From NCBI GenBank assembly GCA_031425255.1, contig JANPIY010000208.1:6955-70954 (forward strand): 64,000 bases of DNA, in the 5' to 3' direction. The notes under the pieces were generated by a model. The model saw only the letters and a list, made by a program, of their open reading frames with translations. It did not search any database and was not told the origin of the DNA. Numbering within the stretch: the stretch's first letter is position 1; every line of letters starts with the position of its first letter. Position numbers and translations under genes: made by a program. The stretch is from Planctomycetota bacterium (GTDB lineage Bacteria; Planctomycetota; UBA11346). Of this stretch, positions 6,130 to 47,187 are shown piece after piece.

Positions 6130-6198
6130 GTCCGATGTCCGATGTCCGTTGTCCAATGTCCCGTCGCCATACGAGACATCGGACATCAGACATCGGAC
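6130..6198. repeat. inverted tandem-heptamer element, family 1 (GTCCGAT)n...(ATCGGAC)n
   Basis: 6130..6153 pairs with 6175..6198 (24 positions, 2 mismatches, ~21-nt loop). The arms are runs of GTCCGAT / ATCGGAC units. It lies between the thyA stop and the folA start. Confidence 0.9.
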
Positions 6199-10031: not shown

Positions 10032-10074
10032 GATGACGGCGGGATCAGCCACGTGGCGCCCACGTCCAGCACGA

Positions 10075-10102
10075 CCTCGCACCTCGCACGTCGCACCTCG
10101 TA
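10075..10102. repeat. tandem heptamer array, family 2 (CCTCGCA x4; minus strand TGCGAGG)
   Basis: CCTCGCA CCTCGCA CGTCGCA CCTCGTA read directly, between the moxR stop (10110) and the DUF58 start. No inverted partner seen. Confidence 0.8.
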
Positions 10103-10109
10103 CCTTTCC

Positions 10110-25059: not shown

Positions 25060-25130
25060 GAGAAAATGCAGTGCGAGGTGCGAGGTTGAAGTCCGCACTC
25101 CGTACGTCGCACGTCGCACGTCATTTTCTC
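25060..25130. repeat. inverted heptamer element, family 2 (GTGCGAG x2 ... GTCGCAC x2) with a 9-bp perfect outer stem; probable bidirectional terminator
   Basis: GAGAAAATG..GTGCGAGGTGCGAG...CGTCGCACGTCGCAC..CATTTTCTC gives 23 Watson-Crick pairs of 27 stem positions by hand pairing. It sits between convergent genes and overlaps the stop of the minus-strand gene by 2 nt. Confidence 0.8.
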
Positions 25131-41598: not shown

Positions 41599-41675
41599 TG
41601 TCGGATGCCCGATGTCGCGTCGACCACGAGGCATCGGACATCGGACATCGGACGTTTCAATCGGACATCGGACAT
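41599..41675. repeat. inverted tandem-heptamer element, family 1
   Basis: 41599..41614 pairs with 41632..41647 (16 positions, 2 mismatches, 17-nt loop). Right side carries ATCGGAC x3, then GTTTCA, then ATCGGAC x2. The loop CGTCGACCACGAGG resembles the loop of the 6130..6198 copy (CGTCGCCATACGAG). Confidence 0.85.
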
Positions 41676-41710
41676 TGCGACCCCGAGGTCCGAACTAGGC
41701 TGCGCCTCCC

Positions 41711-42645: not shown

Positions 42646-45600
42646 ATGCGCTTGCCGCCTCGCCTCATTCTGCCGCTCGTCTTCACCTGCCTCATCAGCG
42701 TGGCGCCGGCTGCCGACAAGCTGTCATACAACCGCGACGTGCGCCCGATCCTGTCCGACACCTGCTTCAAATGCCACGGTCCGGACAAGGGCAATCGCAA
42801 GGGTAAGCTGCGGCTGGATGACCGCGAGGCGGCCCTCGCGAAGGAGGCCTTCGTCCCAGGGAAGCCCGCCGAGAGCGAACTGGTCAAGCGCCTGCACGCC
42901 ACCGATCCCGACGACGTCATGCCACCCAAGGATGCGGTGCGCCAGCTCACCGCCGAGCAGCGCAAGATCCTCGAGCGCTGGATCAGCGAAGGTGCGACCT
43001 ATGAACCGCATTGGGCGTACATCGCGCCCCAACGCCCCGCCTTGCCCACGGTCACCGATCGCACGTGGGCGGCCAATCCCATCGACACCTTCATCCGCGC
43101 GCGCCTGGATGCCGAACAGATCGCGCCTTCCGCGGAGGCCGATCGCGCCACCTTGTTGCGCCGCCTCAGTCTCGATCTCATCGGCCTGCCACCGACGCCG
43201 ACCGAACTCGCCGTCTTCAGCGCCGACCGCGCGCCCGACGCCTTCGCCAAACAGGTCGCCCGCCTGCTCGCCTCGCCGCATTATGGCGAACGCATGGCGG
43301 TGCCGTGGCTCGATGCCGTGCGGTTCGCCGACACCGTCGGCTTCCATGGCGACCAGAATCAGAACAACTTCCCCTACCGCGACTGGGTGATCGACGCCTT
43401 CAACCGCAATCTGCCCTTCGACCGTTTCACCATCGAGCAGCTGGCCGGTGACCTGGTGCCGGGCGCGAACGACGCGACGCGCACCGCCTCGGGTTTCAAC
43501 CGCCTGAACATGATGACGCGCGAGGGCGGCGCCCAGCCCAAGGAATACCTCGCCAAGTACACCGCCGACCGCGTGCGCACCCTCGGCGGTGCCTGGCTGG
43601 GCTCGACCCTGGCCTGCTGCGAATGCCACGACCACAAGTACGACCCGTGGGGCATCAAGGATTTCTACCGCTTCGGCGCATTCTTCGCCGACGTGCGGCA
43701 GTGGGGCGTGTACGCCGATTATGGCTACACCAAGAACCCGGAACTGGCCGGCTACAACAACGACTATCCGTTCCCACCTGAGATCGCGGTGGCGAGCCCC
43801 TACCTGCAGGCGCGTAGCGAGCGCTTGCGCGGGCAACGGGCGCAGGTGATCGCCAAGGCCGCGACCGCCGCCGACGGCAAGGCGCGGACGGCATGGCGGG
43901 CCGAGCTCGCCGCCTTCCTCGCGACCAACCGGGATGGCTGGGCGCCGCTGTCGCCAACGTCGCCGGCGCCAGACGCCAAGGCCAGCTACACCGTCGAAGC
44001 CGATGGCGTGATCACCGTCACCGCCAAGAAGGACGAGAAGGTCGTCGTGCGCCTGACCCCGAGCGTGGGCATCATCGCCAGCATCCGCCTGCAACTGGCA
44101 CCAGGGAAGAACGGGGCGCTGCTGAGCGAGAAGGGCGGCCACGTCGAACTGCGTCTCGCCGCCCGCCCTGCCGGTGACAAGAAAGGCGCCAACCTGGGTA
44201 TCCGCCGTGCGGACGCGACCTCCAAACGCGTGAAATACGCCGGTGGAGCCGAGCTCATCGGCATCCAGCGGGGCTGGAGCCTGAGCGCGGAGCAGGCCCG
44301 CACACCGGCCACCGGCGTGTGGGTGCTCGATCGACCGCTGGTCATCGCTGCCGGCGACGCCGTGGAGCTCACGCTGGAGAAGAACGAACTCGCCCGTTTC
44401 ACGGTGGCGGGGTCTCCCCTGGTGCCCGCCCAGTTGAGCCAGCCGGTATTTCCCGCCGAGCTCCTGACCGCCTTGCGTGGCAGCGGCAACGACCCGCGCA
44501 GCGATGAGGCCTGGCTGCTGAGCGGCGCGGGCGACGCCGCAGCGTATGCGCAGGTGGTGCAGCTCGAGCGCGAGATCGACGAGTGCCGTGACGGCAAGGC
44601 CATGACCACGGTGACCGAGGCTTGGCAGCCCATACCCATCCGCGTCCTGCCGCGGGGCAACTGGCAGGATGAGAATGGTGAGGTGGTGACGCCGGGCGCT
44701 CCACATTTCATGCGCGAGATCCCCGCCGAGAAGGAACGCCGGCTGACCCGCCTCGACCTCGGCGAGTGGCTGACCTCGAGTGACAATCCGCTGACCGCAC
44801 GGGTCTTCGTCAACCGGGTCTGGGCGCAGCTCATGGGCATCGGCATCTCGGCCACGGTCGACGATTTCGGGCTGCAGGGCGAATGGCCCTCGCATCCGGA
44901 ACTGCTCGACTGGTTGGCGGTGGAGTTCCGCGAGAGCGGCTGGGACGTCAAACGATTGGTCACCCTGATCGTCAGCTCGGCCACCTACCGCCAATCGTCG
45001 GTGCTGCGTCCCGAGGTGCTGGCGCGCGATCCGCAGAACCGGCTGCGGGCCAGCCAATCGCCTCGCCGGCTGGACGCCGAGTTCGTGCGTGACAATGCGC
45101 TGACCATCAGTGGCCTGCTGGTCGGCGACATCGGTGGGCCGAGCGCCAAACCCTACCAGCCGCCGAACTACTACACCAACCTCCAGTTCCCGGATCGCGA
45201 CTACGTCGCGAACAGCGACGACCGCCAGTTCCGGCGTGGCGTCTACATGCATTGGCAGCGCACCTTCCTGCATCCGATGCTGGCCAACTTCGATGCCCCC
45301 TCGCGCGACGAGTGCGCGGTGTTCCGCACCCAGGCCAACAGTCCGCAGCAGGCGCTCACGCTGCTCAACGATCCGACCTTCGTCGAGGCGGCACGCACCT
45401 GGGCAGCGCGCCTGATCGCCACTGGCGGCGATGACGGGGCCAAGCTCGAACGCGCCTTCCGCGCCGCCGTCGGCCGAGCGCCCGGCGCCACAGAATCCGC
45501 GCCGCTCCTCGCATTCCTCGCCAAGCAACGGGCGACCTACGCCCAGCCTGGGGACGCAGCCAGCGCCCTGCTGCGCACCGGCGTGTCTCCGCTGCCGCCC

Positions 45601-45684
45601 GAAGCCGACCGCGCCGAGATCGCGGCCTGGACGCAGGTCTGCCGGGTGTTGCTGAACCTGCACGAAACCATCACCCGCCTCTGA
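42646..45684 (+). CDS. PSCyt1/PSCyt2(DUF1549)/PSD1(DUF1553) planctomycete-type cytochrome c protein
   Basis: Signal peptide, CFKCHGPDK heme-binding motif near the N-terminus, 'RRLSLDLIGLPPTP' (DUF1549-like), 'CCECHDHKYDP' (DUF1553-like). Confidence 0.9.
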   Translation: MRLPPRLILPLVFTCLISVAPAADKLSYNRDVRPILSDTCFKCHGPDKGNRKGKLRLDDREAALAKEAFVPGKPAESELVKRLHATDPDDVMPPKDAVRQLTAEQRKILERWISEGATYEPHWAYIAPQRPALPTVTDRTWAANPIDTFIRARLDAEQIAPSAEADRATLLRRLSLDLIGLPPTPTELAVFSADRAPDAFAKQVARLLASPHYGERMAVPWLDAVRFADTVGFHGDQNQNNFPYRDWVIDAFNRNLPFDRFTIEQLAGDLVPGANDATRTASGFNRLNMMTREGGAQPKEYLAKYTADRVRTLGGAWLGSTLACCECHDHKYDPWGIKDFYRFGAFFADVRQWGVYADYGYTKNPELAGYNNDYPFPPEIAVASPYLQARSERLRGQRAQVIAKAATAADGKARTAWRAELAAFLATNRDGWAPLSPTSPAPDAKASYTVEADGVITVTAKKDEKVVVRLTPSVGIIASIRLQLAPGKNGALLSEKGGHVELRLAARPAGDKKGANLGIRRADATSKRVKYAGGAELIGIQRGWSLSAEQARTPATGVWVLDRPLVIAAGDAVELTLEKNELARFTVAGSPLVPAQLSQPVFPAELLTALRGSGNDPRSDEAWLLSGAGDAAAYAQVVQLEREIDECRDGKAMTTVTEAWQPIPIRVLPRGNWQDENGEVVTPGAPHFMREIPAEKERRLTRLDLGEWLTSSDNPLTARVFVNRVWAQLMGIGISATVDDFGLQGEWPSHPELLDWLAVEFRESGWDVKRLVTLIVSSATYRQSSVLRPEVLARDPQNRLRASQSPRRLDAEFVRDNALTISGLLVGDIGGPSAKPYQPPNYYTNLQFPDRDYVANSDDRQFRRGVYMHWQRTFLHPMLANFDAPSRDECAVFRTQANSPQQALTLLNDPTFVEAARTWAARLIATGGDDGAKLERAFRAAVGRAPGATESAPLLAFLAKQRATYAQPGDAASALLRTGVSPLPPEADRAEIAAWTQVCRVLLNLHETITRL

Positions 45685-45689
45685 CAGCC

Positions 45690-45795
45690 GTCCGATGTCC
45701 GATGTCGAACCGCCTTGCTTCACTCCGGAGTTTCCATGCCAGCCAATGACCCTCTTCCCACGATGACATCGGACATCGGACATCGGACATCGGAC
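45690..45795. repeat. inverted tandem-heptamer element, family 1, bracketing the DUF1501 RBS/start
   Basis: Left arm GTCCGATGTCCGATGTC (45690..45706). Right arm (GACATCG)x4 GAC (45765..45795). A 17-bp perfect stem is possible in three registers. The loop contains GGAG (45727..45730) and the ATG at 45736. Confidence 0.9.
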
Positions 45796-47187
45796 GTCCT
45801 TCCCCGCCGCGCCTTCCTCGCCCGCGCCGCCTGTGGCATGGGCGGCATCGCTCTCGCCGGCCTGTTCGCGGGCAATGCGGCTGCCGAGGAACGTTGGCGT
45901 GGCATCATCAAGCCGCAGGCGCCGGTGAAGGCCAAGCGCATCATCCATCTGTGTATGGCCGGCGGGCCGTCGCACCTGGAGACCTTCGATTTCAAGCAGG
46001 CGCTCAAAGACCTGAACGGCAAACCGTTTCCGGACTCCTTCACCAAGGGACAACAGCTCGCGCAGCTCCAGGGCAGCGAGCTCAAGGCGCGCGGCCCGTT
46101 CACCGAATTCAAGAAATGGGGCAAATCCGGCCAGGAGATCTCGACGCTGTTCCCGCATCTCGGCTCGATCGCCGACGACCTCTGCATCATCCGCTCGATG
46201 CACACCGAACAGATCAACCACGACACCGCCCACGCCTTCATGAACACCGGCTCGATCATCAAGGGACGGCCGAGTTGGGGTTCGTGGATGGTCTATGGCC
46301 TCGGCGCGGAGACCGAGGAACTCCCAGGCTTCGTGGTGATGACCTCGCAAGGCCGTGGCGGTGGCGCCCAGCCGGTGTCGGCACGCCAGTGGTCGTCGGG
46401 GTTCCTGCCCAGCAAATTCCAGGGCATCCAGTTCCAGTCCAAGGGCGACGCGGTGCACTACGTCGCCAATCCGGCTGGCGTCGATGCGCCGACCCAGCGC
46501 GGCGTGATCGATGAGGTCACCCGCCTCAACGACCTCCTCGACCAGCGCATCCACGACCCCGAGATCGCCACCCGCAACAGCCAGTACCAGATGGCCTACC
46601 GCATGCAGACCTCGGTGCCCGACCTCACCGACGTGGGCAAGGAGCCGAAGGCGGTGCTGGAGCGTTACGGCATCAAGAAGCCAGGCGATGGCAGCTTCGC
46701 CAGCAATTGCCTGCTGGCCCGGCGCATGGCCGAGCGCGGCGTGCGCTTCATCCAGCTCTACCACCGCGCCTGGGATCACCATGGCGACATCGAGAAGAAC
46801 ATGCCGCTCGCCGCCGAGGAGACCGACCGCTCGAGCGCCGCCTTGATCATGGACCTCAAGGAACGCGGCATGTTGGACGACACGCTGGTGTTGTGGGGTG
46901 GCGAGTTCGGCCGCACCCCGATGGGCCAGGGCTCCGGGCGCGACCATCACATCCTGGGGTTCTCGGTCGCGCTGGCCGGCGGCGGCATCAAGCCCGGCAT
47001 CACCTTCGGCGCCACCGATGAACTCGGCTACAAGGCCGTCGAGCACCCGGTGAGCGTCCACGACCTGCATGCCACCATGCTGCACCTCTGCGGCATCGAC
47101 CACCTCAAGCTGACCTACCGCACGCAAGGCCGCGACTTCCGTCTGACCGACGTGTTCGGCGAGGTGGTGAAGCCGATCCTGGCGTGA
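45736..47187 (+). CDS. DUF1501 domain protein (Tat signal)
   Basis: GGAG 5 nt before the ATG at 45736. 'RRAFLARAACGMGGIALAG' Tat motif, MAGGPSHLETFD, WDHHG, GGEFGRTP. Alternative starts are TTG 45715 and ATG 45763. The heptamer array is translated as TSDIGHRTSD just before the RR motif. Confidence 0.88.
   Translation: MPANDPLPTMTSDIGHRTSDVLPRRAFLARAACGMGGIALAGLFAGNAAAEERWRGIIKPQAPVKAKRIIHLCMAGGPSHLETFDFKQALKDLNGKPFPDSFTKGQQLAQLQGSELKARGPFTEFKKWGKSGQEISTLFPHLGSIADDLCIIRSMHTEQINHDTAHAFMNTGSIIKGRPSWGSWMVYGLGAETEELPGFVVMTSQGRGGGAQPVSARQWSSGFLPSKFQGIQFQSKGDAVHYVANPAGVDAPTQRGVIDEVTRLNDLLDQRIHDPEIATRNSQYQMAYRMQTSVPDLTDVGKEPKAVLERYGIKKPGDGSFASNCLLARRMAERGVRFIQLYHRAWDHHGDIEKNMPLAAEETDRSSAALIMDLKERGMLDDTLVLWGGEFGRTPMGQGSGRDHHILGFSVALAGGGIKPGITFGATDELGYKAVEHPVSVHDLHATMLHLCGIDHLKLTYRTQGRDFRLTDVFGEVVKPILA

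Follow-up and report, generated by a model that had tools for sequence, protein, structure and literature searches.

Heptamer repeats are in excess in bacterial genomes, an observation that goes back to 2007 and for which no explanation has been accepted (PMC4692102). In Xanthomonas, (GGGAATC)n heptamers are organised in closely spaced inverted pairs, with 70-75 pairs per genome, and about 90% of them are intergenic (Rehm et al. 2015, PMC4692102). Most of these pairs are located between ORFs of the same direction, nearer to the end of the upstream ORF (mean distance of 28 nt), and both the length and the sequence of the arrays vary among related species (PMC4692102).

Other described systems combine heptamers with RNA hairpins. 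The intervening sequence (IVS) of the Coxiella burnetii 23S rRNA contains an S23p/PF05635 ORF, is closed by a terminal stem of about 28 bp and is cut by RNase III (PMC4990558). GACAGAT heptamers, in two to three copies whose number varies among strains, are present at the RNase III cleavage site, and passages of the same report term the IVS selfish and describe its removal at the RNA level (PMC4990558). In the hmw1A gene of Haemophilus influenzae, a heptamer array situated in the 5'-UTR constitutes one arm of a hairpin, whose processing by RNase III affects expression (PMC12721329). This array is a proven heptamer switch that contains 11-63 units, with a broad spread among strains (PMC12721329). 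Finally, REP and REPIN sequences are short, dispersed extragenic palindromes, tagged by GTAG or CGTC, that are mobilised by RAYTs (PMC3733652).

The window analysed here is the whole stretch of 64,000 nucleotides from a Planctomycetota bacterium, and its relevant features are collected in Table 1. The locus under study is the junction between a PSCyt1/DUF1549/DUF1553 gene and its downstream partner, which codes for a DUF1501 protein.

Table 1. Coordinates of the hairpin locus, its flanking genes and the other heptamer arrays of the window
Feature	Position	Strand	Basis or location
PSCyt1/DUF1549/DUF1553 gene, upstream partner, 1012 aa	42646..45684	+	ORF list; Pfam PF07635, PF07583, PF07587
TGA stop of the DUF1553 gene	45682-45684	+	ORF list
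Left (stop-proximal) arm, C+(GTCCGAT)x2+GTC, untranslated, 5 nt past stop	45689..45706	+	sequence
Interior/loop, 58 nt: SD GGAG 45727-45730, ATG 45736, second in-frame ATG 45763	45707..45764	+	sequence
Right arm, (GACATCG)x4+GAC+G, translated in frame as (M)TSDIGHRTSD(V)	45765..45796	+	sequence
DUF1501 gene, 483 aa counted from ATG 45736	45736..47187	+	Pfam PF07394, E = 4e-154; N-terminal orthologue comparison
Tat motif RRAFL of DUF1501	45805-45819	+	sequence
Second copy, (GTCCGAT)n/(GACATCG)n inverted array	6130..6198		between two minus-strand genes
Third copy, left arm degenerate	41599..41677		between DUF6807 gene and class-I glutamine amidotransferase (hisH-like) gene
Hairpin of the second heptamer family (GTGCGAG / ACGTCGC)	25071..25122		sequence
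Solitary array of the second heptamer family (ACCTCGC x4.6)	10074..10105		sequence

A preliminary description of this DNA had reported an inverted heptamer array around the start of the DUF1501 gene, and its structural observations hold. The sequence GTCCGATGTCCGATGTC is present at 45690-45706, five bases past the TGA of the DUF1553 gene, and (GACATCG)x4+GAC is found 58 nt downstream, at 45765-45795. A perfect stem can indeed be formed in three registers: two of them are of 17 bp, and the third, in which 45689-45706 pairs with 45779-45796, is of 18 bp. The predicted RNA fold of the locus contains this 18-bp outer stem (-44.8 kcal/mol, z = -3.2). The hairpin also encloses the ribosome-binding site and the start codon, with GGAG 45727 and ATG 45736 inside the loop, and the GGAG-N5-ATG arrangement is kept in orthologues with and without arms. 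With respect to the whole window, the 14-mer of the array occurs 15 times when up to two mismatches are allowed, versus 1.1 expected, and none of 100 shuffles reached such a number.

The right arm is part of the coding sequence, as had also been proposed. There is no in-frame ATG, GTG or TTG between this arm and RRAFL, so the arm (TSDIGHRTSD) must be translated if the Tat motif is made. ATG 45736 is the true start, since GGAG-N5/6-ATG is kept in all the arm-bearing alleles (for instance, in the orthologues L133, L134, L002, L135, L137 and L139) and in the arm-less allele L005. The peptide encoded by the right arm is part of the n-region of the DUF1501 Tat signal, a segment that is variable among orthologues. 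The Tat assignment is based on the RRAFL motif, the hydrophobic stretch and the conservation among homologues; a scan of DUF1501 with NCBIfam for a Tat-signal model gave no match. The annotation of the gene can thus be fixed, with its start at ATG 45736 and a repeat-encoded peptide within the Tat n-region.

A role of the hairpin as intrinsic terminator was rejected, because no terminator-like site was found in 45300-46100 and the right arm is followed by GUCCUUCCCC, with no U-tract. Searches for a promoter consensus around the locus and for Rfam families (nothing at E <= 1) were also negative. Directly 3' of the right arm, within the sequence coding for the Tat signal, Tandem Repeats Finder detected an imperfect 14-nt repeat of 2.1 copies (CCTTCCCCGCCCGCG) at 45798-45828, which is probably compositional.

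The genome that holds the window (G000) is a fragmented MAG of 958 contigs and 6.07 Mb, with 66% G+C. Among its perfect tandem heptamers, ACATCGG is the most frequent (140 arrays). When one mismatch is permitted per two units, the family comprises 172 arrays grouped in 107 loci, a number that is a minimum in an assembly that is 83% complete. More than half of these loci (58/107) are paired and show the order (GTCCGAT)n-interior-(GACATCG)n, the opposite order being essentially absent, and there is one '++-' locus. Arm length peaks at four full units (89 of 149 arms), usually followed by GAC(G), and the arms of canonical copies are of about 31-35 nt. The interiors range from 2 to 196 nt, mostly 50-100 nt, and are specific to each copy: an all-against-all BLAST of 50 interiors and 12 cassettes containing PF05635 genes (see below) only retrieved assembly duplicates and one 21-nt match. 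The family cannot be considered a MITE, since its interiors are unrelated and lack a conserved core. The longest interior, of 196 nt in the hairpin C149:3259-3506, consists of an extended series of GGCCAAC, GGCCATC and GGCCGTC heptamers, the repeat families being nested.

Many unit families coexist in G000, including octamer and nonamer families of similar build. Of the 10 congeneric genomes, five contain the exact 21-mer of the heptamer family, which was missing from all 30 genomes searched in other genera of the phylum; the multi-copy carriers in the public genome collection are several Planctomycetota MAGs. The hairpin of the DUF1501 locus belongs to a family of fold-back repeats that is dispersed in the genome and restricted to the genus. 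The view of a device specific to the DUF1553-DUF1501 pair is not supported: the hairpin is one of at least 107 dispersed copies, it has been lost in two close relatives and it is absent from four. A general link to DUF1501 genes was also rejected, because only two of about 12 DUF1501 paralogues of G000 have an array near their start.

The genomic site of the copies was analysed by using our own crude codon-usage gene caller, whose start positions are approximate. According to these gene calls, 109 of the 118 evaluable arrays are intergenic. The neighbours of paired copies with two called genes are co-directional in 40 of 43 cases, versus a background of 63% for spacers of similar size (p = 8e-6) and 71% overall (p = 3e-4). 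The distance from the upstream stop codon to the stop-proximal arm is about 0-18 nt in most copies, and for about 24 of 40 the downstream gene has its first in-frame start between -3 and +22 nt from the distal arm. A start codon inside the interior apparently occurs only at the DUF1501 locus and at two to three others in G000, and a translated arm is an exception within the family.

These convergent heptamer pairs, their co-directional neighbours and the proximity of one arm to the upstream stop resemble the Xanthomonas arrays, and the family is rated as belonging to this known, still unexplained kind of paired heptamer arrays. Two differences can be pointed out. The Xanthomonas units are G-rich and have been studied as G-quadruplex formers, whereas GACATCG and GTCCGAT have no G-runs. 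Besides, neither a link to PF05635 nor a translated arm was reported in the Xanthomonas study (PMC4692102).

Turnover of the copies was assessed at three orthologous spacers, which were compared across G000 and five congeners (G005 to G009). The first spacer has only 6 nt in G006 (TAAttcgtcATG) and 84-125 nt without arrays in G008 and G009, while it is occupied by a CGCAGAG-type hairpin in G005 and by a (GTCCGAT)/(GACATCG) hairpin in G000. At the second junction, the two genes overlap in G007 (ATGA), G005 carries a (GTGCGGC)5/(CACGCCG)4 hairpin and G000 again a (GTCCGAT)/(GACATCG) one. At the third spacer (G000:C615:7304-7449), all of the six species but G006 present a repeat-arm hairpin, G006 showing GCAGCTC-like remnants only. 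At this spacer G000 and G007 share (GTCCGAT)/(GACATCG) arms but their interiors are unrelated, and the arms are GTCCGGAA/GGACTTCC in G005, GAGCTGC/GTAGCTC in G009 and GAGGAACG/CCTCCGTT in G008. Four arm unit families are thus present at one operon junction (orthologues L229 in G005, L230 in G007, L231 in G009, L234 in G008 and L233 in G006). Judging from these sequence comparisons, the copies of the family are insertions subjected to turnover. Flanks of ATGA or TGA on both sides, which might be target-site duplications, were found at two junctions only.

The comparison with the Coxiella IVS is supported by genes coding for PF05635 proteins (23S rRNA intervening-sequence/Avd-like four-helix-bundle proteins), of which G000 has 12 matches. 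The best of them (C791:1202-1513, TIGR02436) is located between (GTCCGAT)4 at 1089-1121 and (GACATCG)4 at 1555-1588; a MoxR-like gene has its stop 3 nt from one arm, and a DUF58-like gene starts 23 nt past the other, everything being on one strand. Hence, this cassette occupies the same kind of site as the hairpin copies without ORF. A perfect heptamer array of at least three copies lies within 350 nt of 11 of the 12 PF05635 genes, versus 5.7% of all called genes (p = 2e-13), and 17 of the 18 PF05635 genes of four congeners are flanked by arrays. For instance, G009:C86 shows a PF05635 gene with CGATGTC/GACATCG arms, arranged as in C791, and a PF05635 gene of G007 has GTCCGGG (=GGGTCCG)/GACCCCG arms on its two sides, an arm type that it shares with the orthologue of the DUF1501 locus in that genome. 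In the literature searched, no generalisation of the link between PF05635 and heptamers beyond the Coxiella rRNA IVS was found.

The C791 and G009 cassettes have the same build as the Coxiella IVS, with GACATCG arms, and the terminal inverted repeats of the DUF1501 locus form a perfect stem of 17-18 bp, also as in an IVS with its long stem. In contrast, the copy at the DUF1501 locus has no ORF (no PF05635 ORF was detected in its 58-nt interior), it occupies an mRNA spacer together with a gene start instead of a 23S rRNA helix, and its cleavage would cut a coding region. The hairpins without ORF could come from cassettes or, equally possible, cassettes could have landed in hairpins. An origin of the interiors from PF05635 cassettes was rejected by the BLAST comparison mentioned above, since no sequence is common to both. 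An rnc gene, coding for RNase III, is present in G000.

The presence of PF05635 genes next to the arrays raises another explanation, namely that the units are iterated DNA or RNA sites for a dedicated protein, such as PF05635 itself, and that the inverted layout results from binding. The unit sequence is unchanged at more than 100 loci and across species, PF05635 genes almost always adjoin heptamer arrays, and passages of the study by MacGregor (PMC4679880) propose a binding-site role for TAACTGA heptamers located upstream of start codons. However, the unit differs by species at one and the same junction while complementarity is kept, which points to pairing, and not to sequence, as the constraint. 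Many unit families coexist, moreover, within one genome, and we consider this protein-binding explanation improbable.

With regard to REP sequences, the family resembles them in forming inverted dimers with long hairpins in operon spacers near stop codons, and many copies of G000 begin with CGTC. Unlike REPs, its arms are tandem repeats and its interiors are unrelated. A link to RAYT was rejected, because the four RAYT-like (PF01797) genes or fragments of G000 are flanked by other repeats. Those of C649 (4752-5096), C765 (1-186) and C439 (6-170) are accompanied by the REP-type palindromes GTCGTCCCTTCGGGAC, CCCAGCACTGAAGTGCTGGG and GGCGCCCCCTGCGGGGGC, and that of C319 (251-583) adjoins (GCCGAAC)x8. 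RAYT/REP is a separate repeat system in G000. The Rickettsia palindromic elements are hairpin repeats that are tolerated in ORFs, where they are read in frame at permissive sites of the protein. In contrast to them, only one arm is coding at the DUF1501 locus, and most members of the family are intergenic.

Taken together, these comparisons make it likely that the hairpin of the DUF1501 locus is a dispersed, IVS-like fold-back repeat that is tolerated in frame and is not a dedicated switch. An element of this kind consists of two arms of about four heptamers each, with (GTCCGAT)4 as the left arm and (GACATCG)4 as the right one, and of a copy-specific interior between them. Such elements settle in spacers between co-directional genes, with the first arm right past the upstream stop, and like the IVS they might be selfish or simply tolerated. 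Copies present in mRNA are predicted to fold into perfect helices of 17-35 bp that, by analogy with the S23p-bearing rRNA intervening sequences, would probably be cut by RNase III or else be unwound by ribosomes. Folding and processing of the RNA could render insertions into operons harmless. At the DUF1501 locus, the element can be tolerated because its distal arm falls in the freely varying Tat n-region, only in-frame changes of array length (three units) survive, and the hairpin may modulate the stability or translation of the DUF1501 mRNA as a side effect. RNase III acting within the stem of this locus would sever the DUF1501 ORF from its start codon, so that the element is either cut inefficiently there, the stem being of only 17-18 bp, or costly. 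The SD sequence and ATG of the loop are like those of the arm-less allele L005 and look native, which is hard to square with an insertion in one block.

Orthologues of the locus were collected from congeneric genomes, from a 90% protein cluster and from metagenome contigs. The window allele and L133, L134, L156 and L183 possess GTCCGAT / GACATCG arms and an N-terminus of the form MP(x7)M-TSDIGHRTSD-VLxRRAFL. The left arm has two units in the window allele and L134, and three in L133, L156 and L183. The right arm is identical at 31 of 31 positions in the aligned window, L133, L134 and L156 alleles, and L183 has the same array, while the flanking coding DNA of the window allele is only 70-82% identical, and its interior 76-79%, to that of L133 or L134. 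The TSDIGHRTSD peptide is also present in the proteins P0001, P0124, P0130 and P0132. The arms of L002 and L137 are GTCCGGG or GTCCGGA / ACCCCGG (N-terminus of L002, MNKTPDPGPRTSDVLLRRAFL), and those of L135 are like those of L002. L136 carries octamers in both arms (GTCCGGAA/GTCCGGAG; ACTTCCGG). L139 only retains a degenerate left arm and one right unit (N-terminus MNLTPDAFSRRAFL), and L003, L138, L004 and L005 have no arms. A metagenome scan retrieved only two further alleles of the lineage, with identical arms in both. A protein tree, with only two of its 11 inner forks supported, was too poorly resolved to put the arm states in order and shows only that the GACATCG-type alleles are not a clade. 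The layout of the locus is repeated in two paralogous DUF1553-DUF1501 pairs of G007 (C51 and C47).

Two alleles of this collection show additional rearrangements. In L135 (1501-1620, ENA scaffold_26210), the right arm and the next 14 nt form an in-frame tandem duplication of 45 nt that gives MNKTPDPGLRTPDLLLHKTPDPGLRTPDAFLRRAFL. In L138 (1236-1511, JGI Ga0453165_0017046), a 91-aa ORF with hydrophobic stretches replaces the hairpin between the DUF1553 and DUF1501 genes.

Because the unit has 7 nt, the locus had been proposed as a potential phase-variation (contingency) switch, in which slippage by one unit in the coding arm would turn DUF1501 on or off by frameshift. The array is within the DUF1501 ORF whichever of the two usable ATGs is taken, its unit is not a multiple of 3, and its length does vary over evolution, with two or three units in the left arm, while the right arms of relatives have one, three or four units or are duplicated. 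Heptamer switches based on simple sequence repeats also exist elsewhere, hmw1A being an example (PMC12721329). However, the coding arm has exactly four units in the five GACATCG-type alleles, in spite of a flanking divergence of about 20%. A comparison among related strains had been called for and was carried out: none of the 14 orthologous alleles is out of frame, and the length differences measured between deeper relatives are multiples of three units. The segment preceding the RR pair, which has 9 aa in L139, is longer by three heptamers (+21 nt) in L002, with 16 aa, and by three octamers (+24 nt) in L136, with 17 aa.

These differences in array length, all of them in frame, indicate slippage over evolutionary time with selection keeping the frame, and nothing in the comparative data suggests reversible on/off switching. 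The tract of 4.4 units is short in comparison with the 11-63 units of hmw1A (PMC12721329), and the genome-wide arm lengths show a sharp peak at four units. As for the features of contingency loci, a unit that breaks the frame of an ORF is present, but unit-number variation with out-of-frame alleles and a long tract are not. The hmw1A array also differs in having variable units, a non-repeat G-rich partner arm, a location in the UTR and a proven phase variation, whereas at the DUF1501 locus the four units are invariant and both arms are repeats, one of them coding. Finally, the bacterium is free-living and has more than 12 DUF1501 paralogues, this gene among them. All this makes a phase-variation switch very hard to believe in, and an in-frame tolerated repeat continues to be the preferred explanation.

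The arms of the locus change in concert across relatives (AT, GG, GA and even octamers). At the arm ends nearest to the interior, 12 of 17 pairs have changed on both sides, a value that was reached by none of 500 shuffles and that collapses in slid registers. The alignment used was built from trimmed arms, and it contains few independent events: two variable unit positions and one change of unit length. Stems of 18-28 bp are predicted in eight of 10 alleles and paralogues, including a perfect one of 26 bp in the G007:C51 copy, and the stem is lost in L137 and L139. Since the arms change together, the hairpin appears to be maintained. This covariation would fit either selection on pairing or arm-templated repair of the other arm together with slippage. 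The perfect conservation of the arm and the covariation could also result from selection for some function, and not from tolerance alone.

Such a function could be that of a selected translational device tying DUF1501 translation to that of the upstream DUF1553 gene. As a coupler, the ribosome terminating at 45682-45684 would melt the base of the stem, 5 nt downstream; as a throttle, the closed stem would limit access or elongation of ribosomes. The maintenance of the stem with compensatory changes is in agreement with this idea, and in three separate DUF1553-DUF1501 pairs of G007 the SD sequence and ATG are in the loop and the right arm is translated. In metagenome contigs from outside the genus (L140-L196), DUF1553-DUF1501 spacers are mostly very short, many of them of 0-15 nt (e.g. 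TGATCATG), which suggests that coupling matters for this gene pair; the spacers of 50-110 nt look peculiar to the hairpin-carrying lineage. At those family members, about 24 of 40, whose first start is close to the distal arm, this arm would occlude the initiation region. At the DUF1501 locus, by contrast, the SD sequence and ATG are in a loop of 58-72 nt and not in the stem, so throttling or coupling is less likely here than at typical members. The right arm starts 29 nt after the ATG, past the footprint of an initiating ribosome, the gene is intact in alleles in which the hairpin is lost (L137, L139) or absent (L003, L004, L005, L138), and the same arms recur at more than 100 unrelated junctions. 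Coupler and throttle, considered jointly, are therefore unlikely, and the reading of this locus as a phase switch or as a dedicated riboregulator is removed as unsupported.

Starting from the tolerated, IVS-like repeat, a broader proposal can be put forward tentatively, and we regard it as possible but rather doubtful. Heptamer-armed hairpins might be PF05635 cassettes devoid of their ORF that home to the stop/start junctions of operons and to rRNA helices, being harmless through their removal or opening by RNase III, while concerted evolution would preserve the complementarity of their arms. The heptamer excess of bacterial genomes would find an explanation in this way, and the arm of the DUF1501 locus would have been co-opted as coding sequence. 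If this proposal were true, DUF1501 expression would depend on hairpin processing. The association between PF05635 genes and arrays opens the question of the heptamer excess to experiment. The orthologues constitute a natural allelic series for studying the evolution of heptamer hairpins, in which arms are missing, limited to one unit, made of three or four heptamers or of octamers, or duplicated, and this series also illustrates the concerted change of the arms and length changes that stay in frame. Further work is best directed at the PF05635 association and at the allelic series, the claims specific to the DUF1501 locus being modest.

Two minor observations concern the cassettes and the assembly of G000. 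A conserved, internally complementary leader of about 150-190 nt (ggcgtcctttc...gtgctcgccgtcaaggc...gccttgac...gaaaggacacc) precedes the ATG of at least six PF05635 genes. It is found at C600:3156-3356, C616:4872-5072, C501:646-846 and C124:7084-7284, and on the reverse strand in C643 and C19, and it may be a structured RNA or a promoter module of the cassette. Near-identical hairpin loci are also present at contig ends (C568/C624, C407/C670 and C586/C681), which suggests that the repeats break the assembly or that the bin contains strain variants. The two loci of C407/C670 can be told apart by one arm unit, GACCTCG versus GACATCG.
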